Positions 1,402-28,000 of a stretch of 64,000 bases of DNA are shown here, in pieces; positions within the stretch are counted from its first letter, which is position 1, and each line of letters opens with the position of its first letter. Below the pieces are notes generated by a model. The model ran no database searches, had not been told where the DNA came from, and worked only from the letters and a program-made list of their open reading frames with translations. This stretch comes from a virus (lineage: Duplodnaviria > Caudoviricetes). A program made the translations under genes and the position numbers. The DNA is taken from IMG/VR virus record IMGVR_UViG_3300021964_010723; one strand, 5' to 3'.

Positions 1402-1409
1402 TATTTATA
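1402..1409 (-). promoter_or_regulatory. T4-type late promoter TATAAATA, overlapping the portal stop codon
   Basis: Exact match to the T4 gp55 late consensus, 4 nt upstream of ATG 1397. Confidence 0.7.
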
Positions 1410-3162
1410 CCGTCGGGGCGGCTCCTGTATCTGCTGGGGCGGCTTCGGCTCCTGGTTCAGGAACTGTTGCGCTTGTCGGCGGTTCACCTTCGCCGCCGTC
1501 TTCCATTCCTTCAATATCTGCAATATCTTCTGCACCTCCGACATCTGCAGAAATACCTGCACCACTTATACCAACGCCTCGCATTTCAGCAGCAGCGTCG
1601 CCACCACCTGGTTGTAGAGTTTCGTCATTTTCTTCACGCCATAGCCGTTCATTTTCTGCAATTTCTTCTTCACTTAATCCTAGATATCTTTTTAATGCAA
1701 AACGATTAGCAATAAATGGTATAGCTTGTAATTGTCCAAATGTACCAATCCTTTGGGTGTCAAGTTCAGATTGTCTATATGCTGCAAAATTTTGAGGAGG
1801 ACAAAACTTTATATCAAACATTGCGGTATCTATATTCACGCCCTTTTCTAGTAAATATCTTTTAAATTCTTGATCAAATTCTTCTATTAATAAGTTTTGT
1901 AATCGTTCACAGTAAGTGTTAAATCTCAATTCTTGTATATATGCCGTACCTACTCGACCGTCATTATATTGAGCATTGCTATCGTCGGCACCGGTAGGTA
2001 AATAACTGCTAGGTATACGTAAACCTCTTACTAATTTGTTGGTAAAATATCGCAAGTCATCTATTTCACCTAGGTTAGTTCCGCCTGGAAGGGTTTCAAC
2101 TTTGCTACCTCTGCCTTCGGCTGTTTGAGGGAAAAAGTAATCTTCGTTGATTGACAGAGGATTATAGCTACTGTCTATGACGTTTGTTCCTCCTCCTGTC
2201 TTGGATGGTATTCTCCGCTGATGGATTTCCGTTTTTACACGCTCCACAAACTGCATTGCAAGATGGCTAGGCATGTTACCCACATCAACATAAAAAACTC
2301 TTCTCTCAGGTGCTCTTTGCACCCTGTAAATTATAATTGCGTCTTCTAGTAATTCTTTTTGCTTGTAAACTTTGAAAATACTTTCTAATAAACTGTTACC
2401 GAAAGGAAAATTTTCATCTAATCCTTCGCTTAAACTTATGTGTAGAATATGATCTGCATTTACTGCAATCTCTTCTTGTTCAAGCATAAATCTCGAGCCA
2501 CCTTGTGTTGGATTAGTTGGTCCAACCATTCCCCTAGCTCCACCTGTTAAGTAACCTGTTCCGCCACCAGTTACACTACCATTTGTTTGCAAAGGTTGTG
2601 TTGCAACAAGATCCTTAAAGTTTAATGCTACATCTTGTACGATATATTGTTCAGGTTCTTTGCCTTCACTTTCGTTAACTATTATACGATTTACTTTTGC
2701 AGGATCAACATAAAATAATTTTTTTGTTTCCGGATCTCTTAAGAAAAAAGTATCGCCATATTTGAATGTATTCCTTACAATCCTAAACATTCTAGTTTCA
2801 AATTCTTGTAGTTTATACCATTGTTTTAAGTATTCGCTTAGGATTTGTACTTCGGTGTTTGTAGCATTCTTATAAAATTTAAATTCAAAATGAGTATCAT
2901 TCTTTTTATTTTTTTGCGTACAAAATTCTGCAAGGATATCAAGTGCAGCATTTACTTCTGAATCCATATCCATAGTATTGTACTGTCCGTATCTTTCAAC
3001 TCGATTAGGTGCACCGGTATAGATATCTGGTAAGAATGAATTGTAATTAGATCTTGCTGGACCAGGCTTATTCGAAAATTCTCTTCCGCTTATAGGTCCA
3101 TAATCTTCATTCGTATCCCTGTTTTTTTTTGTTGCAGGTGTAAAATATTTTTTCCAACTCAT
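1405..3162 (-). CDS. gp20: Portal vertex protein (T4 gp20-like)
   Basis: Hallmark motifs MDMDSEVNAALDILAE, KQKELLEDAIIIYRVQRAPERRVFYVDVGNMP, EDYFFPQTAEGRGSKVETLPGGTNLGEIDDLRYF and LRIPSS. Confidence 0.95.
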   Translation of the reverse strand: MSWKKYFTPATKKNRDTNEDYGPISGREFSNKPGPARSNYNSFLPDIYTGAPNRVERYGQYNTMDMDSEVNAALDILAEFCTQKNKKNDTHFEFKFYKNATNTEVQILSEYLKQWYKLQEFETRMFRIVRNTFKYGDTFFLRDPETKKLFYVDPAKVNRIIVNESEGKEPEQYIVQDVALNFKDLVATQPLQTNGSVTGGGTGYLTGGARGMVGPTNPTQGGSRFMLEQEEIAVNADHILHISLSEGLDENFPFGNSLLESIFKVYKQKELLEDAIIIYRVQRAPERRVFYVDVGNMPSHLAMQFVERVKTEIHQRRIPSKTGGGTNVIDSSYNPLSINEDYFFPQTAEGRGSKVETLPGGTNLGEIDDLRYFTNKLVRGLRIPSSYLPTGADDSNAQYNDGRVGTAYIQELRFNTYCERLQNLLIEEFDQEFKRYLLEKGVNIDTAMFDIKFCPPQNFAAYRQSELDTQRIGTFGQLQAIPFIANRFALKRYLGLSEEEIAENERLWREENDETLQPGGGDAAAEMRGVGISGAGISADVGGAEDIADIEGMEDGGEGEPPTSATVPEPGAEAAPADTGAAPTV

Positions 3163-5699
3163 ACTAATTGTGCATCCGGATTATTTTTTTTCTGTTTTGC
3201 TCTAAAAATCTCATTACTCTCTTTATTTACCTCAATAAGTTCTCTCACTGCACTAATAAGACGTCCGTAATCAGATACAGCATTTTGATTATTTTGGCTA
3301 TTAGCTAAATCTCCAATCATTGTAGTCTGCGCTTTTAACTCCGTAAGGATTAAAGTTGGCGTGTTATCAGTGGGTTCAATCCTGTTATTATCATTTTCTT
3401 TAGGTTTGCTAGAGCTAGATGAATTAGTCAAGTGATGAACAAGTTGCATTTGATTTTCGTGCATTTTATTATGACTCATAGTCATTTCTTGTATTGCTGT
3501 AGTAAGAGTCTTATAAATTTCCTCTGCTTTATTTCCAACATTCTCTTGCGCTACATTTTCTTCTTCAGCCTCATTTATGTTTTCTAAGTCGTTTGTTTTA
3601 GGTCCGTTAATTTGAGTTACACCTGCATCTTCTATTTGAGGAACCTTAAGATCTTCTTCTGCCTCATTCACTTTTTCTAAGTCGTTAGTTTTTGGTCCGT
3701 TAATTTGAGTAGCACTTGCATCTTCTATTTGAGGAACCTTAGGATCTGTTTTAAAATCTGCATTAATTTGGGTAGCACTTGCATCTTTTATTTGAGGAAC
3801 ATTAGGATCTGTTTTCAAATCTTCATTTTTAGATTTATCTTCTTTATTGATAAATTGTTGGAGTAATGATTCATTATCACCGAGTAAATTTTGTAAAATG
3901 TCAACTGTACTATCAGATAACGACTGTATCCCGTATTCTAAAGCTTTTAGGTCCTCTGGACTTAAATTTTCTATTTCTCCTAGCTTATCTGCATAGGCCT
4001 GTGCAATTTCCTCATTTTTTTCCTTTTCCAACCTTGCTTTTATTTCTGCTTTTGCCCTACCTGCTCCACCGCCACCTTCTTCACTACTAAAAAATCCTGC
4101 TCCTAATTCTCTACGCAATTTTGCCTTTTCAGACCCAATTTCAGTATTAGCATATTGTTCATATAACTTCAATTGATCATCAGTTATGCCTAAATCGGCT
4201 CTCTCTGTTTTGCTTAATTTCTTTATTTCTTCAAGCAACGCTTTGTCATCGTTTAATTGCAAAATATTTCCTGTTAACTCATCTACTTTTGCTATTAATT
4301 CTTGCGTAAAGTCAGAAGCGGCTCCTTCTTGTACATCTGCTTGAAAGGCTAGCATATCTTGCTCATAATCAACTTCTGCACCAAATGCTTGTTGATTCAC
4401 TGTCCTTTGAGCTTCTACTGTAACATCTGTTTGCGCTTTTTGAGCAGCGCCAATTGTCCTTCGTATTTCTCCACCTTCTGCCATCCCATCAAACTGTGCT
4501 GCAGTTTGATCAGTTGCTGCTTTAAGTGTATCATTCCATGCCTTTAAAAATGTAGCAGTGTCGCCGGTGATACCCTCAAGCCCTTCTATATTTCCTTTAA
4601 CTCTATCTATTATAGGTCCTATTTCTTCAAAGGCATCTGCTTGAGTTTTTGCTACATCACTAACTTGAGCAAGCGCAGCTAATCTTAAACCTTCCTCACT
4701 TTGAGCAAAAGCTGCAGCTTCTGCAGCAGCTTTTTCACTTAATTCTTTAGCTAATGCAATATCTCCTCTTTTTGTAGCTGCAGCAGCTTCTTCTAATAAA
4801 CCATATGTTTCACTATTGAGTGAAGCAAAGTTTTTAGTTGCTTCACTCATAGGAACACCTGTTTGAATTAAATCATCTAATAGGTTTTGAACAACAGGTG
4901 CAGCTTGCTGTAACGCAGCCTGAGCACCTTCATATGCTTTACTTGCTCCTACTGCACCTTGTCTTTCAGCTAACTGTAGAGAAGCTTGAGTGGCGCCAGA
5001 TTTTTTCCTTTGATTAATCTCATTTTGCATATCCTCTGCATTTTTGCCAGTTAATTTGCTGATAATTGTTAAAGATTTTGCGTATTTGGCAGCTTGTTGA
5101 ATTTGTTGATTAGTTGATAGCCCTTGTAATCTCATACTCCTTTGATTTTGAGCAAGATACTTTACAGTAAATCCTGTTAATTCCTCTGTGCTGTATCCTA
5201 ACTCCCTAAACCTTGCGTCTATTCCAGTATCACGGAGTGCTTGACCAATTGTACCAATTGCTTTGGTACCACCGTCAACTCCTCCTGCAAATCTCACAAG
5301 GTCTTTGCTATTGCTGATAACAAGCTCAGCAAAGCCTGCTAATCCCAATCTCGAATCAGTTACAGATGTCCTTAATTGTATTAGATTACCAGATAATCCA
5401 CCGCCTACTTTGCTTAGATGTTCAAACGCAGTAATACCTGATTCAAAATAGGATGCAGCATCTGCTCCTACGTTTGCAAGAGATTGAAAAGTATTTCCTA
5501 ATACAGGAACTACGCTTGCTAGACTTCCAATGCTAGTAATTGTCTGTTGTAAACTTACAGTTCCTTGATTTAAAACTTGTGTGAACGAACCACTTGCACC
5601 TTCTAAGTTTTGAGTAAGGCTGTTGATCGATAAACCTGCTTTTTTTGCTTGTTCGAGCAATGTTTCCACTACTTTATCTAGTTCTTCTTGCGTTGGCAT
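3159..5699 (-). CDS. Tail tape-measure-like protein
   Basis: 846 aa, Ala/Gln/Gly-rich and predicted helical, with typical segments (ELGYSTEELTGF, LSKLTGK-like IISKLTGKNAEDM). It is adjacent to a chaperone-like gp26/gp51 pair and overlaps the portal start as ATGA. Confidence 0.75.
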   Translation of the reverse strand: MPTQEELDKVVETLLEQAKKAGLSINSLTQNLEGASGSFTQVLNQGTVSLQQTITSIGSLASVVPVLGNTFQSLANVGADAASYFESGITAFEHLSKVGGGLSGNLIQLRTSVTDSRLGLAGFAELVISNSKDLVRFAGGVDGGTKAIGTIGQALRDTGIDARFRELGYSTEELTGFTVKYLAQNQRSMRLQGLSTNQQIQQAAKYAKSLTIISKLTGKNAEDMQNEINQRKKSGATQASLQLAERQGAVGASKAYEGAQAALQQAAPVVQNLLDDLIQTGVPMSEATKNFASLNSETYGLLEEAAAATKRGDIALAKELSEKAAAEAAAFAQSEEGLRLAALAQVSDVAKTQADAFEEIGPIIDRVKGNIEGLEGITGDTATFLKAWNDTLKAATDQTAAQFDGMAEGGEIRRTIGAAQKAQTDVTVEAQRTVNQQAFGAEVDYEQDMLAFQADVQEGAASDFTQELIAKVDELTGNILQLNDDKALLEEIKKLSKTERADLGITDDQLKLYEQYANTEIGSEKAKLRRELGAGFFSSEEGGGGAGRAKAEIKARLEKEKNEEIAQAYADKLGEIENLSPEDLKALEYGIQSLSDSTVDILQNLLGDNESLLQQFINKEDKSKNEDLKTDPNVPQIKDASATQINADFKTDPKVPQIEDASATQINGPKTNDLEKVNEAEEDLKVPQIEDAGVTQINGPKTNDLENINEAEEENVAQENVGNKAEEIYKTLTTAIQEMTMSHNKMHENQMQLVHHLTNSSSSSKPKENDNNRIEPTDNTPTLILTELKAQTTMIGDLANSQNNQNAVSDYGRLISAVRELIEVNKESNEIFRAKQKKNNPDAQLV
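3562..3820 (-). repeat. Three imperfect in-frame tandem repeats in the tape-measure C-terminal region
   Basis: Three copies of (N/K)VPQI(K/E)DA(S/G)(A/V)TQIN. Copies 2 and 3 continue GPKTNDLE(K/N)(V/I)NEAEE; copies 1 and 2 are preceded by KTDP. The DNA is near-identical, e.g. gcatcttctatttgaggaacctta. Confidence 0.9.
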
Positions 5700-5743: not shown

Positions 5744-5753
5744 TTGGAGATTT

Positions 5754-6596
5754 ATGGCAAGCTTTCTCAATCAATTTACTCGACAGCCCAAGATATTTGG
5801 AACTTTACCTAGTCAAGGAATCACATATAATCAAGAAGTTATACAAGACATGAATGTAACTAGTGTTCCTATTTTTGGAATGAACACCATGGATGAATTA
5901 ATTTTAAAAACACCTGATGCTTTATTTTCAGGAGAAGCTACAGCTCTAGTTGTTAAAAGCTGCATTCCGTCTATTTTAGATCCTTGGAAAATTTTAACTG
6001 CTGATATGGATTACTTATTAATTGGTGTAAGAATTGCAACATATGGAGATAGATTACCTATTACAACTACATGTCCTAAATGCAAAGCGGATACTAAGAG
6101 TGATCTACATTTACCAAGTCTGTTAGACAATTATACGTCCCAAGAACCTGTAGAAAAAATTACATTTAATGGTTTAGATTTAGATATTGTTCCATTAACT
6201 TATGAAATCTCAACTAAAATATCAAAAGACAACTATCAAATGCAAAGAACACTGTTGCATATTGATCAACAAAAAGATTTATCAGAGGAACAAAAAGATC
6301 TACAAAAACAAACAATCTACAAAAGTTTATCTATGTTAAATTTTGAGACTGTCTTACATCATGTTTATAGTATATCTGACGGACAAAATGTAGAGACAGA
6401 CAAAGAAGAAATTTTTGCTTTCGTCAAAAATTCTGAGATAGGTTTATATAAGTTAATAGAAGATGCTACGAATATAATTTCTAAAAAGTTTGCCCTACCA
6501 AAAGTTGACGTTGCCTGCTCAAGCGAAACATGCAATCATGTTTACAAAAGCGAAACTTCTTTTGATTATTCAAATTTTTTCGAAGTCAGATCTTAA
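5754..6596 (+). CDS. gp26: Baseplate hub assembly / tail assembly chaperone-like protein (T4 gp26-like); start corrected to ATG 5754
   Basis: GGAG SD before ATG 5754. Motifs LPSQG, DELILKTPDALFSGEA, IKSC-like VKSCIPSI, DYLLIGVRIATYG, two CxxC-type motifs (CPKC; CSSETC) and C-terminal NFF. Confidence 0.8.
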   Translation: MASFLNQFTRQPKIFGTLPSQGITYNQEVIQDMNVTSVPIFGMNTMDELILKTPDALFSGEATALVVKSCIPSILDPWKILTADMDYLLIGVRIATYGDRLPITTTCPKCKADTKSDLHLPSLLDNYTSQEPVEKITFNGLDLDIVPLTYEISTKISKDNYQMQRTLLHIDQQKDLSEEQKDLQKQTIYKSLSMLNFETVLHHVYSISDGQNVETDKEEIFAFVKNSEIGLYKLIEDATNIISKKFALPKVDVACSSETCNHVYKSETSFDYSNFFEVRS

Positions 6597-6814
6597 AGCT
6601 CGATAGATCTGGCGTAGAACAATTAATTACTAAGCATGAGCAAGATCAAAAAACTATAAAATATAATATGTATAAGATTGGTTGGTACATGCGCGGAAGT
6701 TTAAGCTATACTGATTTAATGCGAAATATATCGGTTGACGACAAAGAAATAATGAATACAATTATAAAAGAAAACATTGATCTAAGTGTTCAAGCAAAGA
6801 TGCCTCTGCTGTAA
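6575..6814 (+). CDS. gp51-like / GT-like C-terminal chaperone extension, probably reached by -1 frameshift from the gp26-like ORF (not in the ORF track)
   Basis: The -1 frame is open from 6566 to TAA 6812-6814 and encodes FFRSQILKLDRSGVEQLITKHEQDQKTIKYNMYKIGWYMRGSLSYTDLMRNISVDDKEIMNTIIKENIDLSVQAKMPLL. Its first ATG (6668) has no SD. The slippery heptamer T TTT TTC is at 6575-6581. Confidence 0.65.
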   Translation, partial: FFRSQILKLDRSGVEQLITKHEQDQKTIKYNMYKIGWYMRGSLSYTDLMRNISVDDKEIMNTIIKENIDLSVQAKMPLL

Positions 6815-6819
6815 ATTTA

Positions 6820-7851
6820 TTATTTTATATTAGGAAAAAACTTTTGTAATGTTGACGTAATACGTTCAATATCTAGATTCCTAACCATTCTAAGGAAAGT
6901 AGTTAACTTATCAATTACCCATCTATCGTCTTCAGGAACAAGTGCGAGTAATTCTTTTTGCTTACTTTCTAAGAGTGCTGCTGTTTCTTTTCCTTCTCCA
7001 AAAGGTATCATATTGCCAATACCAGAAATTAAAGAACAATCATCCATCAAAGACAACGATGAATAAACTGCAGTTTTACACCAATCTTCAATAGGTGCTT
7101 TAAAGTCTGCTGCAGAGAAAACGCTTTTAACAGCTTCTCCAGTAAGATACCCTCCTGCCAAAGCTACAAGTGCGGTTATTAAAGCTGCAGCTCCTACAGT
7201 TGGAGCTAGACCAACTATAATTGGAGCTAATATACTAGCTGTTATATAGCCGCCACTACCCATAAACAATGCAGTAACTAAACGGTCAATTAACAGTTCT
7301 ACTGATTCATCTATTTTTTTTCTAAAATAAGCAATGTCTACTGCTACCGGTCTTCCTGTATACGGACTAATATTGTTTCTGTTAAGTTTTTCACTACAAC
7401 CATTCAGTTCATAAGCTATTATGTAGCGTCTACTGTAAGTGATTACATCATCAGCAGCAGGAACCGTAATGGCTAATTTGAATAGCCATCCGCCAAACCA
7501 ACTTTTTGACCATTTTCGTGTTTTTTCTACTGCATTCCTTTTTGCCTTTTTTAATTTTTCTTTATCTTTTTGTTTTTGTTTTTTATATTTGTCTTTGTCT
7601 TGTTGCTGATCTTTATCATTATATTTTTTCTTTTTAGTATCTTTAAAACGTTTTTTTTGGTTTTTATCTTCAGCATTTGCAGTTTTTATAAGATTCTTTG
7701 CTTCAATTTTACCTTCATCACCTACAAATTCTTTACTAATATAATTCTTGTTTTCGATATCATATATTCGATAAACTGGTTGTCCTTTATCAAACGTTAA
7801 AGTTTGATGAATTATAAATCTTTCTTCATTTATTATTTGAGATACTAACAT
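6820..7851 (-). CDS. Hypothetical protein, probable head-internal/ejected protein with transmembrane-like helices
   Basis: N-terminal MLVSQIINEE resembles prohead-protease-cleaved leaders ending in I/LxE. It has a Lys/Gln-rich charged tract and a long Gly/Ala-rich hydrophobic segment (ALFMGSGG...LVALAGGYL), and a late promoter upstream. Confidence 0.5.
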   Translation of the reverse strand: MLVSQIINEERFIIHQTLTFDKGQPVYRIYDIENKNYISKEFVGDEGKIEAKNLIKTANAEDKNQKKRFKDTKKKKYNDKDQQQDKDKYKKQKQKDKEKLKKAKRNAVEKTRKWSKSWFGGWLFKLAITVPAADDVITYSRRYIIAYELNGCSEKLNRNNISPYTGRPVAVDIAYFRKKIDESVELLIDRLVTALFMGSGGYITASILAPIIVGLAPTVGAAALITALVALAGGYLTGEAVKSVFSAADFKAPIEDWCKTAVYSSLSLMDDCSLISGIGNMIPFGEGKETAALLESKQKELLALVPEDDRWVIDKLTTFLRMVRNLDIERITSTLQKFFPNIK

Positions 7852-16118: not shown

Positions 16119-18139
16119 TGGCATCTACTACTCCGCGAGGACAATTTTCAAGAGGTGCAAGGCCTGTATGGATGAAGGGAGTAGGACCTTATCTAGGACG
16201 GGTAGCAAATCATTTAGATACAGAATATATGGGGAGTATTGAAGTTGAAATTTTAAAAACTACTGAAGCAGGTAGTCCTACTGAATCTAGTGGATATTAT
16301 ATTCCATGTACATATGTAAGTCCTTTCCTTGGACAAACTCCAAGGAAAGGTGTACAAAATACAGACAAATTTGATTATACCCAAAAAAGTTATGGATTTT
16401 GGGCTGTTCCTCCTGACATAGATACAAAAGTTTTAGTATTAATGGCTGAAAATAATTTTGGTTTTGGGTTTTGGATAGGATGTGTTCAAGATAAATTTAT
16501 GAATTTTATGATGCCTGGTAATGCATCAACATCCTACAGCAGTCAACCGGGTGGAGGAAAAGGTGGTGGAGGAGGAAAGTATGCAAATAAGATTGTACCA
16601 GTAGGTGAATATAACAAAGAGATATCAAAAGGCACAGGCAATGACCCTACACAATATTATAAACCAGTTGATACACGGCATGCAGATATTTTAGAAAAAC
16701 AAGGTTTAACTAAATGGTCAGAAAGTATAGTTGATCAAACTAGAGGTACAACTACTTCGAGTGCTCGGAGAGAAGTTCCTAGTATGGTAGTTGGATTAAG
16801 TAGTCCGGGTCATGTTGATAGGAAAGGTCCAACAGTGCAGTATGGAGAAAAGTTTGGACAAACAAATGTACCGTTTAGTAGATTAGGTGGCACAAGTTTT
16901 GTAATGGATGACGGAGATGAAAAAATTCTTCGTAAAAAACCTGCAAACACCGATCCTCCAGAATATGCTTATGTAGAAAAAAAACAATTTGATGGAGATG
17001 TAACATTACCTCATAATGAATTAACAAGATGGCGCACTCGCACAGGACATCAGATTGTAATGCACAATACTGAAGATTTAATTTATATTATTAATGCTCA
17101 AGGTAATGCTTGGATAGAATTAACAAGTAATGGAAAAATTGATATTTACTCAGACGATAGTGTTAGCATACATTCTGAAACTGATTTTAATTTGAAAGCA
17201 AATAGAGATATTAACTTAGAAGCCTCAGGTAATGTCAATATTAAAGCCAGAGAACAAATGCGTTTAGAATCTGGTAACGCAACTCATTGGAAAATTGGCA
17301 CAGCAGAAGTTAAGAAAGATCCTGCGTTACGTCCAGAATTAGGTATTAAAAACGATGATGGTACATGGAAATGGAATAGTTTTGAAGATTTGCCAACAGT
17401 AGCTCAACCAGGTGATAATTTGTATATAGATGTAAGCAGAGACGTGTATTGGAAGGTAGGAACCCATCCTAAACTAGGAGATTTTAAATTAGAAGTATCT
17501 CAAGACGGACATGCAACATTTGATAGAGATTTCTTTTTATTAGCAAAAAAGAACATCCATCAGCATTCAAATAAAGCTACATTCCATGAAGCAGATACAA
17601 CTTTTGATCAAAAATCAGGCAAAGAATTTTATCAATTATCTGGAGCTAACATGCACATAAGGAGTGATAAAGATTTGCGCTGTTATGCAGATGTAAATGC
17701 TATAGTAAAAAGTAAAACAAATTTTATCACAGCAATGAATGCAAATCATATGAAAGCAGCAAATATGAATTTTGTAACTGCAGGATCTAGTAATGAATAT
17801 AATGCTCCTGTTAATAATATGAGTCAAATTCAATATTTCGGCAGTGGTTCTGCAAAAGGTTCTAATGGTACCACTGCCGAAAAAGCCACAGATGCAATAG
17901 ATGCATTGTTGCCAGAGTGTGCTCATCATGCATTCATACCTATTAGGATTCCAACTCATGAACCATATCTTAGTCATGAAAATTTAAAGCCAGAAACTTT
18001 TTATCCTGACAAAACAGATAGTACAATATCAATTAATGACTCGTGTGATTTTGCAATAAATTATGAGCAAGAAGAAATTAAAACGCCTTTAATATTTAAG
18101 GGTGGTGCGCAAGAGGACACATTTAGGAAAGGTAAGTGA
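16118..18139 (+). CDS. gp5: Baseplate central spike (T4 gp5-like: OB-fold plus beta-helix; no lysozyme domain seen)
   Basis: N-terminal OB motif SYGFWAVPPDIDTKVLV, RWRTRTGHQIVMH, and beta-helix repeats GNAWIELTSNGKIDIYSDDSVSIHSETDFNL. Confidence 0.8.
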   Translation: MASTTPRGQFSRGARPVWMKGVGPYLGRVANHLDTEYMGSIEVEILKTTEAGSPTESSGYYIPCTYVSPFLGQTPRKGVQNTDKFDYTQKSYGFWAVPPDIDTKVLVLMAENNFGFGFWIGCVQDKFMNFMMPGNASTSYSSQPGGGKGGGGGKYANKIVPVGEYNKEISKGTGNDPTQYYKPVDTRHADILEKQGLTKWSESIVDQTRGTTTSSARREVPSMVVGLSSPGHVDRKGPTVQYGEKFGQTNVPFSRLGGTSFVMDDGDEKILRKKPANTDPPEYAYVEKKQFDGDVTLPHNELTRWRTRTGHQIVMHNTEDLIYIINAQGNAWIELTSNGKIDIYSDDSVSIHSETDFNLKANRDINLEASGNVNIKAREQMRLESGNATHWKIGTAEVKKDPALRPELGIKNDDGTWKWNSFEDLPTVAQPGDNLYIDVSRDVYWKVGTHPKLGDFKLEVSQDGHATFDRDFFLLAKKNIHQHSNKATFHEADTTFDQKSGKEFYQLSGANMHIRSDKDLRCYADVNAIVKSKTNFITAMNANHMKAANMNFVTAGSSNEYNAPVNNMSQIQYFGSGSAKGSNGTTAEKATDAIDALLPECAHHAFIPIRIPTHEPYLSHENLKPETFYPDKTDSTISINDSCDFAINYEQEEIKTPLIFKGGAQEDTFRKGK

Positions 18140-18640: not shown

Positions 18641-21600
18641 ATGGCATCTACTGATAGACAAAATAGATTGTTAGTAGCCGAAGATTGGAAAAGAATTTAT
18701 CAAACTTATCAGACAGCAGATTTTCAAAGTTATGATTTTGAAAGTCTAAAGAGAGTTATGATAAGTTATATAAGAGAAAATTACCCTGAAGACTTTAATG
18801 ACTATATTCAGAGTTCAGAGTATATTGCTTTAATTGATTTAATTGCATATTTGGGTCAAAATTTGTCATTTAGAGTTGATTTAAATGCAAGAGAAAATTT
18901 TCTTGAATTGGCTGAAAGGCGAGAAAGTATCTTACGATTAGCTAGGTTATTAAGCTATAATCCTAAAAGGAACGTAGGAGCTAGCGGATTATTAAAAATA
19001 ACAAGTGTTAGGACAACAGAAAATGCTACAGATTCAAACAATTTATCATTAACTAACCAAAATATTGTATGGAATGATCCTAGTAATCCTAATTGGTACG
19101 AGCAATTTATTAAAGTTTGTAACCTAGCATTTGACAATATAAATTTGTTCGGATCACCGTTAAAGAAAGAAAATATATCAAACATAGATACATCTGTATA
19201 TAGGGTTAATACGGCTGAGTTAGGAGATTTACCTTTATTTACAATAACAAAAACATTAGACGGGTCAAGCTATGATTTTGAAATTGTGCCAGCAGATATC
19301 AATGGGACTATAGTCGAAGATGCACCAGCTCCAAATAGTAAATTTAAAATATTATACAGAGAAGATGGTGTTGGACCTAATAGTCCTAATACAGGTTTTT
19401 TTTGTTTGTTTAAACAAGGTACATTGGATTATGGCGATTTTGAAGTTACAAATCCTAGCCAAAATCAATTAGTAACTGTAGATGCAATTAATGTTAATAA
19501 CGATGATGTTTGGTTATACAGTCTTAAAAATAGCACAGATATAGATACTCTTTGGACTAAGGTAGATTCAATAGAAGGTAATAATGTAATTTATAATGAT
19601 GTTGCAAAAAAAATTCGCACTGTTTACGGGGTTTTAACAAGGGTAAATGATAGGATTAGTTTAATTTTTTCTGACGGAATTTTTGGAGATTTACCGAAAG
19701 GAAACTTTAGAATTTATTATAGGACAAGTCGAAATCAAAATTTAGTAATCACTCCGAGAGATATGCTAGGAATTGGTTTAGATATAGAATATGTAAGTTC
19801 AAGTAATAAATTAGAAACTTTATCTTTAGTATTAGAATTACAGTATACCATTAATAATAGTTCAGTAAGTGAAGATAATGAGTCTATTAGGAAATTAGCT
19901 CCTATGAATTATTACACTCAAAATAGATTAATTACTGCAGAAGATTATCAAATAGGGCCTTTAGTGTCTAGTAATCAAATTGTTAAAGCAAAAAGTATTA
20001 ATAGAATTTCTAGTGGTATATCTAGATATTTTGATTTGACAGATGCAACAGGTGCTTATAGCAAAACAAATGTCTATGGCACAGATGGTATATTATATCA
20101 AGAATCTTTTGTAGATAAACTTACATTTAATTATAACAATGTGACAGAAATTGAAAATGTTTTGTTTAATGTAATTGATCCACTACTTAAAACGCAAAAA
20201 ATAAAAAATTATTATTATTCTAATGTTACAAGAATACCGTATACTGATCAAGGCATAAGTTGGGTTTCAGTAACAAACGATATAAATTTAAACACTGGGT
20301 ATTTAAAGAACGAAGCAAATGTAAAACAAGTGATAGGCCAAAGTACTACTTCAATTTTGCAGTATATAAAAATCAATACGCATATTAAATTTTATGCGCC
20401 TGCTGGATATTATTTTAACGCAGATAGAGAATTAGTACCTGGAGATGCAAATGTGCCTAATTCAACGACATATTTTTGGGTAAAAGTAATAGCAACATTT
20501 AATGATGGCACAGAATTAAATGAGGACGGTAGTGGACCTATATATTTTAATGATAAAATACCAACTGGGTCAGTATTAGGAGAAATACGGCCATTTCTAT
20601 CAAAAGGTATTACCGAGTCTGTAAAAACCGAAATGATAGATCAAATCACAGCTAATAAAACATTTGGTTTAAGATATGATCGTGTAGCGGATCAATGGTT
20701 AGTTGTTCTTGAAGAAGATTTGAATTTAGATAAACCTTTTAATTTAGGTAAATCTGGAGATACTACGGGTCAGAAATTAGATTCAAGTTGGTTGCTAAAA
20801 TTTTCAACCAATTTAACATTTTATACTGTTGAGTATAGAGCCAGTAGGTTCATATTTGAAAGTAAAAAAGAGGTTAATTTTTACTTTGACAAATCTGATA
20901 AAATTTACAATTCTGTAAATGGTGAAACAACAAAAGATAAAATTGTAGTTTTATCAATCAATACTAAACCTATAACAAACACAGATAATTTATCTTCATT
21001 TACAAAAGATTATGATTGGGCTATAACAAATAATTTTAGAGATCAACTAGGTTATATAACTAGTAAAAAAATCGAAGTAGATTTTTTTGATAGTGACGAT
21101 GACGGTGTATCAGATGATGAAGATTTATTCCAGGAAATTGTACAACCAAACGTAAATGATGAACCGTTTACTTTTATTTTTCAAAAGAAAGTAATTACAT
21201 CAAATGGAGTTGAAACATACAATTATGTTTCAAATGATGAGCTTAAAATAATAATAAAAAAAGGACTAGTTTATACAGGACCATTAAGTCAATATTCAGA
21301 TGGACAAATTGTTTATTTTGTAGCAGAAAATATTTTTCAAATTTTTAATAAAAGCATAAATTCTTTTTCTATAACTAATGATTATAAAGCATTTATAGGA
21401 AGAGATAAATTACAATTTAGATACTTACATGCAGCAGATTATGATAATAGAATAGACCCTAGTATTAGTAATATAATTGATGTTTATTTGTTAACAAAAT
21501 CTTATGATGATGCTTTTAGAGGTTATCTCAGCGGTAATGTTAAAGATGAGCCGTTGGTAATGTCATCTACTGATTTATATCTCAATTTTAGTGGACCATT

Positions 21601-22066
21601 AGAAAAGATAAAATCTGTCACAGATGAAATAATTTATCATCCTGCGCAATATAGAATGCTTTTTGGAAGTTTAGCGCATGCTGATTTACAAGGAATTTTT
21701 AAAGTAATTAAAAATGTTGACCTAGTAATTAATGATAATGATATAAAAGCAAAAGTCATTACTACTATTAATCAATTTTTTAGTATAGAAAATTGGTCGT
21801 TTGGTGAAACATTTTATATGTCTGAATTGACTGCATATGTAATGAAAGAAATGTCTCCTGATATTTCGTCTATAATTTTAGTTCCAAGATCTCCAAATTT
21901 ATCTTTTGGAAGTTTATATGAGGTAAGGGCTGAAGATAATGAAATATTAATTAGTTGTGCAACAGTAGCTGATGTTGAGATTATTGAAGAAATTAATGCA
22001 GAATCTTTGAATAGTGATGTAATTTCTAATGCAACAATACCACAAAATGGAATTCTAACCCAATAG
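18641..22066 (+). CDS. gp6: Baseplate wedge subunit (T4 gp6-like)
   Basis: DFESLKRVMISYIR, EYIALIDLIAYLGQNLSFRVDLNARENFLELAERRESILRLARLLSYNPKR, FSDGIFGDLP and QNRLITAEDY motifs. Confidence 0.9.
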   Translation: MASTDRQNRLLVAEDWKRIYQTYQTADFQSYDFESLKRVMISYIRENYPEDFNDYIQSSEYIALIDLIAYLGQNLSFRVDLNARENFLELAERRESILRLARLLSYNPKRNVGASGLLKITSVRTTENATDSNNLSLTNQNIVWNDPSNPNWYEQFIKVCNLAFDNINLFGSPLKKENISNIDTSVYRVNTAELGDLPLFTITKTLDGSSYDFEIVPADINGTIVEDAPAPNSKFKILYREDGVGPNSPNTGFFCLFKQGTLDYGDFEVTNPSQNQLVTVDAINVNNDDVWLYSLKNSTDIDTLWTKVDSIEGNNVIYNDVAKKIRTVYGVLTRVNDRISLIFSDGIFGDLPKGNFRIYYRTSRNQNLVITPRDMLGIGLDIEYVSSSNKLETLSLVLELQYTINNSSVSEDNESIRKLAPMNYYTQNRLITAEDYQIGPLVSSNQIVKAKSINRISSGISRYFDLTDATGAYSKTNVYGTDGILYQESFVDKLTFNYNNVTEIENVLFNVIDPLLKTQKIKNYYYSNVTRIPYTDQGISWVSVTNDINLNTGYLKNEANVKQVIGQSTTSILQYIKINTHIKFYAPAGYYFNADRELVPGDANVPNSTTYFWVKVIATFNDGTELNEDGSGPIYFNDKIPTGSVLGEIRPFLSKGITESVKTEMIDQITANKTFGLRYDRVADQWLVVLEEDLNLDKPFNLGKSGDTTGQKLDSSWLLKFSTNLTFYTVEYRASRFIFESKKEVNFYFDKSDKIYNSVNGETTKDKIVVLSINTKPITNTDNLSSFTKDYDWAITNNFRDQLGYITSKKIEVDFFDSDDDGVSDDEDLFQEIVQPNVNDEPFTFIFQKKVITSNGVETYNYVSNDELKIIIKKGLVYTGPLSQYSDGQIVYFVAENIFQIFNKSINSFSITNDYKAFIGRDKLQFRYLHAADYDNRIDPSISNIIDVYLLTKSYDDAFRGYLSGNVKDEPLVMSSTDLYLNFSGPLEKIKSVTDEIIYHPAQYRMLFGSLAHADLQGIFKVIKNVDLVINDNDIKAKVITTINQFFSIENWSFGETFYMSELTAYVMKEMSPDISSIILVPRSPNLSFGSLYEVRAEDNEILISCATVADVEIIEEINAESLNSDVISNATIPQNGILTQ

Positions 22067-22085: not shown

Positions 22086-25000
22086 ATGGCTTTTAAAAAT
22101 GATCAGATTGAACCAATTCTTCCTGCAGACGAATCTGAACAAAGGAAATCAGTAAATCATTTACCAAAATATTTTAGGACAGAATATAATCAAAAATTTC
22201 TATCTACAACATTAGATCAAATGATTCAGCCAGGAACAGTTGAGCAAATTAATGGTTTTTATGGTAGAAGAACTGCAAAAGCTTTTGATTATAACAAAGA
22301 TATCTATGTAAATGACATAACTCAAGAAAGGCAAGATTATCAATTAGAACCAGTTACTGTTGTAAAGGACGATCTAAATAATTTAAAGTATTATGCAGAT
22401 TATGTAGATTTTATAAATTACTTGAAAATTAGGAATACAAAAGATATTGATCATGATGTAGCTAACGCTGAAGAATATTACGCATGGAATCCGCATATAG
22501 ACTGGGATAAATTTGTAAATTTTAGAAATTATTATTGGTTACCTAACGGACCAGTAACACTAACAGTTGCAGGGCAAGAAAAAGAAGTTGAAAGCGAATA
22601 TACTATTAGATTACAGGATAATGTAGATAATTTTACATATATTTTTACACCAGATGGGTTAACGAATAATCCTACTATTACTCTTTACAGAGGACAAACT
22701 TATGTGTTTGATATCGATACTCCTAATTATCCAATAGCATTTGTTTCAAGAAAAACTTTTACTCCAGGCAGAGAATATAATGAAGCCACAGAGAATACAT
22801 CGTTGATTTATACAGATGGGCTAGTAAAAAAAGATGAAAATGGAATCATTACAGATGAACCTTTTTTATCAAAAGGTGTATTTGAGTTCGCTATACCAGA
22901 TAACGCTCCTGATGTTTTATTTTATATATCAAAAGATGATCCCAATTTATCAGGCACAATAAAGATTTATGATATTATAGAAAATACAGAAATAAATGTT
23001 GAAAAAGAAGTAATTGGTAAAAAAAATTATAAAACAAGTTCGGGTTGGAAGTTTTCAAATGGTATGAAAGTTCAATTTGCGGGTAATGTTTTTCCAAATT
23101 TGTATGGGGACGGAGAATGGTATGTAGAAGGAGTTGGAACTGCAATTAACTTAATTAATAGTAAAGATTTAGAATTGAATTCGTTATTTGTAGATGATAT
23201 TGAAGTAGAATTTGATAATAAAGGTTTTGATGACATGCCCTTTGATGAAGCCCTTGGTTATCCTAGTAAAAAAGATTATATAGTTATTAATAGGGCAAGT
23301 AATGACGGAAACTTATGGAGCAAATATAATCGTTGGTTTCACATAGATGTAATAGAAAAATCGTTAGAAATAAATCAGCAAATTCCTAGTGTAGATCAAT
23401 TTTCAAGAGCAAATAGACCTATAATTGAATTTGAACCAAATATAAAGCTACACGAATTTGGAACACAAAAAAAGCAAAATGTAAATTTGGTTGATGTCAT
23501 TACTACAGATGTTTTTTCTACAATTGAAGGTAGTATAGGTTATAATATAGATGGTATTGATTTGACTGAAGGTATGCGTATTTTGTTTTTAAACGATAAT
23601 GACATATTTGTTAAAAATAAAATTTTTAAAGTTTCTTTTGTAAACATTAACAACATTGTACAAATAACATTAAAAGAAGAAACAGATGCAGAACCTTTAA
23701 TTAATGAAAATGTTTTAATTACCCAAGGTAATCATAATAAAGGAAAATATTTTTATTATAACGGTCAAACATGGCAAAAAGGTCAGGAAAAGTATAGTAT
23801 AAATCAATCTCCTCTATTTGATATGTATGATGAAGAGGATGTTTGGTTAAAAGATGAATTAAAGTATCAATATAGTCAATTTAATGGAAATAAAATATTT
23901 TCGTATGCTATAGGACAAGGTAATGATGATAGTATATTAGGATTTCCATTACAATATCAAAATATAGAAAATAGCGGAGATATTGTTTTTATCTTTGATT
24001 TGTTAAATACTGAATTTTCATACAATAATAATAATAGTGTTACAATTTACAAAACAGATATTGCATTTTTAAGAAAGTACTATAATAAAGATAATTATGA
24101 ATTAATAAATGGATGGGAAAAGGCAAATACATATAGTCAGCAAAGTGTAATTTTGCAGTTATTGTCTACTAATGATAATATGTATGCCTTGGATATGTAT
24201 GAGTCAATCGACTTAAATGATTTTTGGATAAGGGTATTTGTAGATAATAGTTTGCAAGAGCAAAATATAGATTATAAATTAGTAACCGATGATAATAATT
24301 CTTATTTTTTACAATTTATAAAACAATTACCGCTCAACAGTAACATTGTAATAAAAACAAGATCTAGTAAGCCTAAAACTAATAGTGGGTTTTATGAAAT
24401 ACCGGCTAGTTTAGAAAAAAATCCTAGTAATGACAATTTATACCAATTTACTTTAGGAGAAGTAAATGATCATGTGGGCTCTATTGTAGAAGAACTTTCT
24501 AGTTTTACAGGAAATTTTCCAGGTATAGGAAACTTAAGAGATTTAGGAAATTTATCAAGTTATGGTAAGAAATTTTTGAAGCATTCAGCATTGTACAATT
24601 TGTATTCTTACCATATTTTAGATAAGCAAGCCAGTGTCGTAGATGCTGTCAGTTTTGCCCAAAAAGAATACTCTAAATTTAAAAGATTATTTTTACAAAC
24701 TATTTCTAACATTGGGTTCCAAGGAGGAACCCAACAGACATTTGAAAAAGTGTTGGAAGAAATTGTAAAAGGCAACTCAAAAGATTTGCCTTATTACTTC
24801 AGCGATATGATTGCTTATTCCGGTAAAAGAATAAATTCTAATTTAATTGTAGATGTAGATCAGCAATTTTTTCCTTTAAGTACAGATTTTAATTTAGATA
24901 CTGTGTCTAATAGGGCAGTTTTGGTCTATAAAAATGATATTTTACTTACGTATGGAGTTGATTATGATTTCTCTAATCCAGGATTTGTACGGGTATTTGG

Positions 25001-28000
25001 AAATAAAGAAGTAAATGATGTTATAGATGTTTATGAGTTTGAGAATACTTTTGGAAGCTTTGTCCCTCAAACTCCTACAAAACTTGGCTTATTTCCTAAA
25101 TATGTTCCTCGAATTTATATAGATGACAGTATTGTACGTAAGCAGTTAGATGGTAGTAGCGGGCCATTTAAGATTTATGGATTTACTAAAAAGGAAGGAT
25201 TAGGTTGGTATTATCCAATTTTTACTGATTATGCAGCAGCTGAACAATATGACAAAAATAATAGCGGTGACGGGGAAGTATCTATAGTAAAATTTGACGA
25301 TATTCCTACAGTTTTTTACATGCCTGTGTCAAGTAAAATAATTAGTATGAATGATACTGAACAATTTGATGCATGGTACCAAGACACAGTCGTAATCCAA
25401 GGTCATGACGGTAGTAAAATTAATGCTTTTAAGGATTTTAGAGATACTTTAATTTTAGAATTAGAAAAAAGAATTTATAACAATATTAAAGTAAATTATG
25501 ATAGCGACTTGTTTGATTTACACAAAATTTTACCAAGTTTTTACAGGAAAAATTTAGTTAAAAGAGAAAATTTATATAACGCAATGTTAAATGATTTTAT
25601 AAATTGGAGTAAATTAATTAATATAGAATATGCTCCTCATTTATATTTTGATTTAACCAATCCCTATACTTATAATTATTCAAGTTCTTTTCTTCACAAT
25701 GGAGAAAAAAGTCCAGGTTGGTGGAGAGCTATATATGAATATGTTTACGATACAGATAGACCTCATACTCATCCCTGGGAAATGTTAGGATTTACAGAAA
25801 AACCAGACTGGTGGGATACCGAATATGGGGTTGGACCTTATACTAACAACAATTTACCTTTATGGCAAGATTTAGAAAATGGAATTATTAGAAAACCTTC
25901 TTTTAAAATAGATGTAAGATTTGCTAGACCAGGATTAAGTAAAATTATTCCTGTAGATGAAAAAGGTAAATTACTTAATCCTGCTTTTGCAAATATTATT
26001 AAAGAATATAATAGGCAATCAATACAAGAAAGTTTTAATTTTGGAGATGGTGGTCCTGTTGAAACTGCTTGGAAAAGAACTAGTGAATATCCTTTTAGTT
26101 TATTAAAAGCTGCGATTTTGTTACAACCTGCGTATGTTTTTTCAGGTAGTTTTGATAGGATACAGCAGAAAAGAAATATTGCAGGACAAATAATTTACAA
26201 TGTAAGTAAAAATCATATACAGTTGTCTAGCTTGCAGTTTCCAGATGAAGTAGCTAATATATTTGCAAGTGGATTAATAAATTACATAGTAGAATATCAA
26301 AATAAACATTTTTTAAATAGGTTCAATGATTATGTTGATTGTGTAAAAAATTTAAAAAATCAGTTAGGATTTAAAGTAGGTGGCTTTACTGATAAAAGTA
26401 AATTTAAATTAATATTAGACAGTAGATCACCTCTTAATAAAGGAAATGTATTTGTTCCTGATGAAAATTATGACATTTATTTGAACACAAGTTTTCCTAT
26501 AAATGAGTTTATCTATAGCGGAGTATTAATTACAAAAGAAGCAGATGGATATTATGTTAAAGGTTATGATGAAAATTTTTCTAAATTTCCTTATTATGCT
26601 CCTAGTAAAAAGAATTCGGATACAGTCCTTAATGTAGGAGGAATAAGCGAAACTTTTGTAACATGGGAGGCTGGAAAAACATATTCAAAAGATGTTATAG
26701 TAAGGGTAGATGACGTATATTATAGAACAAAAATTACTCATGTAAGTGGAGATAATTTTGACACTTCAAAATTTTCAAAATTACCAAGGTTACCGATAAT
26801 TGGCGGAGCTGTAGCAAAGTATAGACATAGTTATGATAGTTTTATAAGCTATTTAGAGTACGGAACATTGTTGCCAGAAATACAAGATGTTGTTGATTTT
26901 TTATTAGGTTATGGTCATTATTTAGAAACTGTAGGATTTAAATTTGACAAATTTTTAGAAGATACAACAGAGATAGCAGATTGGGTATACAGCGTAAAGC
27001 AATTTTTGTTTTGGACAACACAAAATTGGGGAGCTGGATCGATTATAACATTGAGTCCGGCTGCTGATGAAATAAAGTTTCATAATGATTATGCAGTTGT
27101 AGGAAACACTTCTGCATCAAGTATAGGATATAGTATTCGTAAAGCTGACGGAACAGTAATTCCTAAAGAAAACTGTAAATTTTTTAGAGATACAGACAAT
27201 TCTTTTTCTGTTAAAGTGATTGATTATTCTGGAGGCATTTATTTTATTAAAATTCCTTTAGTTACAAAGGAACATATTGTTTTAATTGATAATACAACAA
27301 TTTTTAATGATATAATTTATGATCCTACACCTGGGTATAGACAAGAAAGGATAAAAGTAGCTGGGTATAGAACAGCAAGTTGGAATGGGTCTTTAAATAT
27401 TCCTGGATTTTTTTATGACAGAGCAATTGTTAAAAATTGGACAGTTTATACAGATTATAATGCAGGAGATGTTGTTAAATTTAAAGAATTTTATTATACT
27501 GCAAAACAAAAAATATTTGGAAGTGATAACTTTGAATTTAATAAATGGAAAAGATTAGACGAAACTCCTTCAGCCAAATTGTATTCTAATTTTGATTATA
27601 AAATAGAGCAATTTAAAGATTTTTATGATTTGGATAGCGATAATTTAGATACAAATCAACAGCGTATAGCACAGCATTTAATAGGCTATCAAAAAAGGAA
27701 ATATTTACAAAACATTATTAATAGCGATGTAAGTCAATATAAATTTTATCAAGGTTACATACAGGAAAAAGGCACACGTAATGCCTTAACCAAATTGTTT
27801 GATGTTTTGTCTTCTGCAGAACAAGATAGTTTAGAATTTTATGAAGAATGGGGCGTAAGAGTTGGTATTTATGGTGGTAATGAAACTTTTGATGAATTTG
27901 ATTATGTTTTAAAAGAGAAAGATTTTAATTTAAAACCACAACCTGTTTTATTATCAAATACAACTTCTAAAACTTTAGATTATATAAATCGAATAAAAAA

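Follow-up and report, generated by a model that had tools for sequence, protein, structure and literature searches.

Comparative evidence for a probable programmed −1 ribosomal frameshift in the gp26-like baseplate-hub gene of a RaK2/Atu_ph07-like jumbo phage

Introduction

Recoding in tail-assembly genes has its textbook examples in the λ G/GT and P2 E/E+E' systems, the latter of which slips on a U run. For phages of the T4 type we know of no described G/GT counterpart, and the roles of T4 gp26 and gp51 have been unclear for decades. In λ and P2, gpG/gpGT and E/E+E' are tail assembly chaperones made through a conserved −1 frameshift (Xu, Hendrix and Duda 2004, as cited in PMC9024508). Both T4 proteins appear in the literature as hub assembly chaperones; gp51 is required although the particle lacks it, and the presence of gp26 in the hub is disputed (PMC3004832). 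Here, we describe a gene of the gp26/gp51 family in a window of 64,000 nucleotides (i.e., the whole stretch of DNA that was analyzed; IMG/VR record IMGVR_UViG_3300021964_010723, Duplodnaviria, Caudoviricetes), which comes from the genome of a jumbo myovirus that is uncultured, estuarine, and rich in AT (about 30% GC). From comparison with its relatives, we consider it very probable that this baseplate-hub assembly gene of a RaK2/Atu_ph07-like phage undergoes a programmed −1 ribosomal frameshift close to its 3' end, which would fuse the gp26-like open reading frame (ORF) to a second, overlapping ORF.

A frameshift at this place had been proposed from the letters of the window (hereafter, the original prediction). 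None of the seven public records that we inspected joins the two ORFs; public records start the small ORF at differing points or leave it uncalled. The literature on gp26, gp51, the baseplate hub, and frameshifting yielded no report of the slip, with most subscription journals lying outside the coverage and an earlier report being possible.

Results

The gp26-like gene ends on a slippery heptamer

The 280-aa product of the gp26-like gene (Table 1) matches the Pfam family PF12322 (T4_baseplate, the gp26/gp51 family) with 34.5 bits against a cut-off of 24.5, residues 54-276 aligning with positions 38-218 of the 219-position profile, and it matches phrog_150 (“baseplate hub”) with an E-value of 2.8e-9. 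The 3' end of the gene reads TCA AAT TTT TTC GAA GTC AGA TCT TAA, giving the short form the C-terminus ...SNFFEVRS. Within it lies the heptamer T_TTT_TTC, a layout that lets both tRNA-Phe re-pair one base back, and a second heptamer, A_AAT_TTT (6572-6578), overlaps the first. The −1 frame is closed by TGA at 6563-6565, opens at 6566, 9 nt ahead of the heptamer, and runs to TAA at 6812-6814; counted from the first Phe, this −1 ORF has 79 codons. Its earliest ATG, GTG, or TTG is the ATG at 6668 (codon 31), which has no Shine-Dalgarno (SD) motif upstream. The predicted fusion has 353 aa, compared to 280 aa for the short form, and its junction reads ...SNFF/RSQILK; the predicted tryptic junction peptide of the long form is SETSFDYSNFFR, and the 0-frame counterpart is SETSFDYSNFFEVR. 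On re-reading of the sequence, the coordinates, heptamer position, ORF lengths, and product sizes given in the original prediction were all exact, and its remark that the first 31 codons of the −1 frame hold no SD-backed start was correct as well.

The heptamer and the −1 frame are conserved throughout the clade

We then compared the gene across a clade set of 81 loci, comprising 76 IMG/VR loci, Atu_ph07, GAP32, RaK2, and the window, at 24-49% protein identity. Since 81 of the 81 loci keep an in-frame heptamer together with a −1 extension of 62-75 aa beyond the 0-frame stop, while in most loci the +1 frame ends less than 10 aa past this stop, the layout is beyond chance. The IMG/VR scan gave 80 loci with 32-49% identity, and all 77 with a complete gene end keep both heptamer and −1 extension, the contig ending ahead of the −1 stop in 3 of these. 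The 0-frame stop lies 1-14 codons downstream of the two Phe codons (FF) in every locus. Among the cultured relatives, the Atu_ph07, GAP32, and RaK2 homologues carry the same TTTTTTCG; their −1 frames open 1-3 codons upstream and span 73-81 codons, and the −1 peptides align with one another. The arrangement is likewise present in Phosso and Turkey5.

The heptamer is invariant in 63/63 unique aligned sequences, and FF is encoded as TTT TTC in 66/66 unique sequences, while Phe elsewhere in the same genes is TTT 579 times and TTC 102 times. The wobble base before FF is also T in 66/66, and this across eight different codons (AAT, GAT, AGT, GCT, ACT, TCT, CAT, and CGT); other invariant residues (D, E, P, G, and C) switch synonymous codons freely in the same genes. 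Together, these codon choices indicate that the constraint acts at the nucleotide level, beyond the needs of the protein.

The −1 frame itself carries a protein-coding signature. FFR is nearly invariant at the start of the extension, and the positional entropy of the −1 frame at codon positions 1/2/3 is 1.29/0.94/1.63 over codons 1-35, with a like pattern in codons 36-60, indicating that this frame is coding from the slip site onward. The first start-type codon is scattered between codons −20 and +38 among the 66 sequences; in 20 of them, it is a conserved Met within a WYMRG motif, and 55 have no start-type codon with an SD-like motif ahead. The alignment of homologues that the original prediction had put forward as a check returned both of its expectations, namely TTT TTC at the FF codons in every unique sequence of the window's clade and a −1 frame that is open in every locus without a conserved start. 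At the level of strains, no indel is seen at the T run in the contigs that cover it in three further metagenome studies. Strain differences upstream of the heptamer are synonymous in the 0 frame in 18 of 25 cases, and those downstream (at 6586, 6709, and 6766) are in 3/3 cases synonymous in the −1 frame, where each changes a third codon position.

Predicted RNA structure follows the heptamer

The candidate hairpin of the window folds at −11.9 kcal/mol (z −2.04; 9 of 200 shuffles were equally good), and its strong core, CAGAUCU/AGAUCUG, begins 5 nt past the heptamer. In a set of 63 unique relatives, folding of the 55 nt that follow the heptamer averages −11.3 kcal/mol, compared to −6.5 kcal/mol in 775 control windows from the same genes, a difference whose significance is overstated by the p-value since the 63 sequences are related; in a sliding profile, the folding energy is lowest at precisely this site. 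All 5' arms begin 5-8 nt past the heptamer, and the distance of the 3' arm differs by clade, two clades having 11-bp stems with 3-4 compensatory pairs each. Among the strain differences, 6586 T>C replaces a U.G pair in the window's stem by C-G. A search of positions 6400-6900 against Rfam found no family. These folds lend modest support to a hairpin after the heptamer in the window and clear support to one across the family.

Some relatives encode the long form in a single frame

A profile of the extension was searched against 1.84 billion representative proteins and gave 447 matches, most of them short ORFs whose starts are arbitrary. Among the best 150, however, about 25 are proteins of 319-351 aa from some uncultured relatives, with the extension in frame at the C-terminus. 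Across the junction, these proteins read D-x-x-x-(N/S/L/M)-F-R-x-(Q/R/K)-(I/L)-L, and examples such as NNFRNQIL, SSSFRSRIL, and SELFRNKIL are collinear with the predicted NFFRSQIL. Since the in-frame proteins run through the shift point, the junction predicted for the window's fusion is, in relatives, a stretch of ordinary, uninterrupted sequence. Such long forms indicate that the fused protein is viable, and nothing more. In one of them, the alignment with phrog_150 reaches position 270 of the 282 in that profile.

Two of the in-frame loci were examined, and in both, a short PF12322 gene lies directly upstream, ending ...NFFTDNK or ...DFFAK; with this ending, the upstream gene is a stand-alone short form. 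Such stand-alone short-form paralogues of two-gene lineages (L087, 411-1295; L088, 4931-5890) have lost the zinc-ribbon-like Cys pairs that the frameshifting genes and the long forms retain, although the FF motif at the end and a T run are kept.

The arrangement extends to KVP40, cyanophages, and HTVC008M

T4 gp26 (208 aa) ends ...KEFFELL, with PF12322 covering it to residue 206, and its FF codons are TTC TTT. In T4 gp51 (249 aa), PF12322 reaches residue 201 only, and 48 residues more follow; newer Pfam places a second family, PF28602, on gp51 homologues. At the end of T4 gene 26 (L004, 3801-3805), the start of gene 25 lies in the −1 frame and overlaps the stop (TAATG), with no slippery site before it.

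KVP40, Syn9, P-SSM2, and HTVC008M have one PF12322 gene each, which ends in the heptamer (T_TTT_TTC in KVP40, Syn9, and P-SSM2; T_TTT_TTT in HTVC008M) and is followed by a −1 ORF of 70-73 codons. Similarly, IMG/VR yielded 79 complete cyanophage loci, and 79/79 combine one PF12322 gene with the heptamer and the −1 ORF. HTVC008M (L095, NC_020484 16557-17228 region) has a T8 run with the stop straight after FF (AGT TTT TTT TAA); among 161 loci, no other lacks the final C. Public records annotate the KVP40/cyanophage −1 ORF as a separate “gp51” of 47-57 aa (phrog_634), and the KVP40 record already remarks on the likeness of its small ORF to the C-terminus of T4 gp51. When aligned using hhalign, this −1 ORF matches the T4 gp51 tail from the F-(R/K) junction with a probability of 95.7% and an E-value of 8.8e-9, so that, judged by similarity, the KVP40/cyanophage type is clearly homologous to the gp51 C-terminus.

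The extension of the window is clearly of the same type as that of RaK2 (E 3.5e-19). In a full-length hhalign comparison of the window's family with the gp51 family, the N-terminal bodies aligned (E 1.3e-5) but the alignment drifted towards the C-terminus, and a hidden Markov model of the fusion gave marginal scores only against the single T4 gp26 and gp51 sequences. A common origin of the window-type extension and the gp51-type tail is probable because the bodies are homologous and the slip codons and their position are identical; sequence alone is no proof. The idea of a gp26-like/gp51-like fusion, as originally proposed, is strongly supported in its core, and its gp51-like label is sound through the homology of the KVP40/cyanophage ORF to gp51, although the window's own type of extension links to gp51 only weakly.

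In KVP40 and Syn9, the gene order is a tail-tube-family gene (phrog_45), gp26, the (−1) gp51, and a large protein. In Syn9, the gene directly after gp26/“gp51” encodes gp14 (L178, 7388-10723; 1111 aa), whose N-terminal part matches PHROGs annotated “endolysin,” a match that would suit a tape measure with a lysin domain.

Both parts of the long form are predicted to fold

The short form bears two zinc-ribbon-like Cys pairs, C107/C110 and C255/C260, the latter joined by H262. Its AlphaFold model has a mean predicted local distance difference test (pLDDT) score of 91.2, falling to ~54 over the last 10 residues, i.e., the 0-frame tail after FF. The 79-residue extension, modeled from a 62-sequence alignment, is predicted to form a four-helix domain with a mean pLDDT of 89.9. 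Scans of both frames against Pfam and PHROG found only PF12322 and phrog_150 and no tail-assembly-chaperone family, and a PHROG scan of the 62 extensions found no consistent family. For the short form, searches of the PDB by sequence, Foldseek, and exhaustive alignment found no relative, the best hit (Z 7.8) matching a helical hairpin only; a fold search of BFVD with the extension model gave no match at an E-value below 2.

Alternative explanations

The gp26-like gene and the downstream ORF might instead be two separate genes, the latter being expressed from an internal start or by termination-reinitiation and the T run being kept only for FF and, in the other frame, an Arg codon. This is how GenBank presents the small ORFs of GAP32, Atu_ph07, Phosso, Turkey5, KVP40, Syn9, and P-SSM2. 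Several observations do weigh against a frameshift. The cyanophages have an ATG 5 codons after FFR, which would suit coupled re-initiation. Short genes of the two-gene loci hold the T run without a −1 ORF, L087 and L088 keeping AAT TTT TTC and GAT TTT TTT with no homologous −1 ORF behind them, which shows that FF and AT-rich codon use can be enough to retain the run where no frameshift takes place. When the 20 nearest relatives of the window were folded to a consensus, no shared structure emerged, and the hairpin of the window is modestly better than shuffles and has its outermost pairs 3 nt past the heptamer. Finally, the window/RaK2-type extension matches the gp51 tail or the KVP40/cyanophage type with E-values of 0.008-0.04 and low probability, and this weak bridge always rests on one collinear motif, S-Y/L-x-x-L ... 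M-x-x-x-E/D-R. Separate initiation, however, would have to take place in a window that offers no ATG, GTG, or TTG for 31 codons and no SD motif, and among relatives whose starts are scattered and whose annotated starts cut into the conserved domain. Nor would it account for sequence and codon periodicity that are conserved from the first codon after FF, for a wobble T ahead of FF that is invariant over 8 codons, or for in-frame long forms that are collinear across the junction. We therefore regard two separate genes as highly improbable.

Slippage of RNA polymerase on the T6 run, which would leave some mRNAs minus one U or plus two and yield the same proteins, seems scarcely more credible than separate genes. 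The site is a homopolymer, HTVC008M has T8, and transcriptional realignment at A/T runs does occur in bacteria and phages; such slippage, however, usually needs runs of about 8-9 or more, and six T is shorter. In 160 of 161 loci, moreover, the run is exactly six T followed by C, with no drift to longer, and the structure 3-7 nt downstream, with its compensatory changes, is what ribosomal frameshifting calls for and polymerase slippage does not. The one contig from an RNA library that covers the site (run X18, 6520-6830) is without an indel, though contigs drop rare variants and this one is no evidence of transcription. Since homopolymer runs are error-prone in some sequencing chemistries, an assembly error might also be suspected, or a recent frameshift mutation in a decaying gene; yet the identical layout recurs in 81 plus 83 independent loci, in cultured phages, and in contigs of three other studies, and the 0-frame stop stands 1-14 codons after FF in every locus, which leaves an artefact or a decaying gene with next to no probability. 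The central claim of the original prediction, namely that ribosomes are programmed to shift to the −1 frame at the FF codons, is by contrast strongly supported on comparative grounds.

Genomic setting of the locus

The nearest named relatives of the phage are Atu_ph07, Phosso, GAP32, RaK2, CBB, and related phages, with 24-30% protein identity; a comparison of the DNA of the locus with GenBank phages gave no match, and these relatives were reached by protein only. The stretch was found again in estuary, salt-marsh, and marine metagenomes of many studies. Synteny with GAP32 and RaK2 takes in, in this order, the T4-type portal, a virion protein of 720-846 aa, the divergent gp26-like gene, and the gp46/gp47 nuclease genes. 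In the window, the gp26-like gene is divergent from the gene for the 846-aa protein, and no tube gene adjoins it.

In a protein atlas, the only named clusters nearest to the 846-aa protein are tape-measure families (language-model neighbors, score about 0.91), and we take a tape-measure role for this neighbor as a faint lead only. The protein has no similarity to T4 gp29 or to the KVP40 protein downstream of gp51, and a search of the PDB gave no match for it. The gene pair had been placed next to the tape-measure gene; it does adjoin the gene of a large virion protein, but on the opposite strand, and that protein is only weakly tape-measure-like.

Table 1. Features of the gp26-like locus and adjoining genes in the window
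Feature	Position	Strand	Remarks
gp26-like gene, short form	5754-6596	+	280 aa; PF12322 body
Shine-Dalgarno GGAG	5746-5749	+	4 nt ahead of gp26-like ATG; direct reading
Slippery heptamer T_TTT_TTC	6575-6581	+	X_XXY_YYZ in 0 frame; invariant in 63/63 unique aligned sequences
Candidate stimulatory hairpin	6585-6613	+	9-bp stem 6585-6593 / 6605-6613, 11-nt loop
−1 frame continuation, predicted C-terminal extension of long form	6581-6814	+	77 aa; CGA Arg ... TAA
846-aa virion structural protein, possible tape measure	3159-5699	-	phrog_14121
T4-type portal gene	1405-3162		Portal_T4; side context, next after 846-aa gene

Other parts of the window hold features of their own. A 343-aa ORF at 6820-7851 (−) separates the gp26-like gene from the gp46/gp47-like SbcCD nuclease genes, and it has no Pfam or PHROG family match. 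A gp5-like hub/lysozyme gene (16118-18139) and a gp6-like baseplate wedge gene (18641-22066) come immediately before a single ORF of 5450 aa at 22086-38438 (+), presumably a giant baseplate or fibre protein. Between 51768 and 60773 (+), at least six genes match the radical S-adenosylmethionine (SAM) families phrog_14086 and phrog_21308, one of them being also QueE-like, a radical SAM cluster that is unusually dense for a phage.

Discussion

The analysis shows how the sequence is laid out, how it is conserved, its coding signature, its modeled fold, and the relatives with an in-frame long form; from these we infer the slippage itself, its efficiency, and its function, and the course of events would be as follows. 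Most ribosomes would read the gp26-like gene to its 0-frame stop and release the 280-aa short form. A fraction would stall at 6576-6581, where UUU occupies the P site and UUC the A site, the downstream hairpin probably keeping them there; both tRNA-Phe would then slip one base back, the next codon would be CGA (Arg), and reading would go on to UAA. The product would be the 353-aa long form, with an extra 77-aa domain predicted to consist of four helices. These two products would correspond to the short and long PF12322 members that in T4 are encoded by the separate genes 26 and 51. By homology, both forms would act in the assembly of the central hub and tape measure, and a short:long ratio fixed by the slip would parallel λ G/GT. 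A chaperone role for the window protein is suggested by what has been published on T4 gp26 and gp51 (PMC3004832).

If this reading is true, gp26 and gp51 would be simply related, as the short and long forms of one chaperone, and the ratio between the two is predicted to matter when hub and tape measure are assembled. Hundreds of phage genomes would then need a corrected annotation at a small “gp51” or hypothetical ORF that is start-less or mis-started. Since the family ranges from a single frameshifted gene to a pair of genes, it would also provide a natural series in which to study the gain or loss of recoding. Concerning the direction of this series, we find the case evenly balanced for an ancestral state with one gp26 gene and a −1 product, “gp51,” as in RaK2/Atu_ph07-like phages, cyanophages, HTVC008M, and KVP40, from which T4 and some uncultured lineages would later have moved to two paralogues, the unrelated PF12322 family having converged on the G/GT logic of a fixed short:long chaperone ratio for tape-measure and hub assembly. 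On this view, the rule of frameshifted tail chaperones would extend to the T4 superfamily as well.

Compared to λ G/GT, the window has, at the level of sequence only, the same plan of a short and a C-terminally extended form from one start, with a −1 slip near the 3' end, and it shares with P2 the slip on a U run in a tail-assembly gene. Unlike in λ, the gene does not lie between tube and tape-measure genes and is instead divergent from a weakly tape-measure-like gene; the KVP40/Syn9 order mirrors the λ order of tube, G, T, and tape measure as far as the tube-family gene, whereas that of the window does not. The body of the window protein also differs from λ-type chaperones in that it has 280 aa with zinc-ribbon-like Cys pairs and is not a small helical protein, and the searches linked neither its sequence nor its modeled fold to a known chaperone family. 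The comparison with G/GT is thus an analogy in how the system may work and not one of family membership. Of the “cryptic G/GT system” of the original prediction, what remains is the layout of short and long forms through a −1 slip; a chaperone-family match and the λ gene order do not apply to the window.

T4 gp26 and gp51 belong to the same family as the window protein. Like the 0-frame product, gp26 stops at FF plus three residues, and like the predicted frameshift product, gp51 continues past the equivalent position, by about 48 extra residues. T4 differs from the window in having two divergent paralogous genes, in the non-slippery codons at FF, and in that gp26' is also made, from an internal start. 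The extension of the window is about 25 residues longer than the gp51 tail and matches it weakly (E 0.02-0.04).

The pairs of “gp26” and small “gp51 baseplate hub assembly catalyst” in KVP40 and the cyanophages differ from the window in the type of extension, that of the window being the longer RaK2/Atu_ph07 type, and their records treat the small ORF as an independent gene, whereas our reading of the window joins it to gp26 by slippage. In their layout, these pairs are like the window: two ORFs, with the same heptamer at the same FF codons and the second ORF in the −1 frame of the first.

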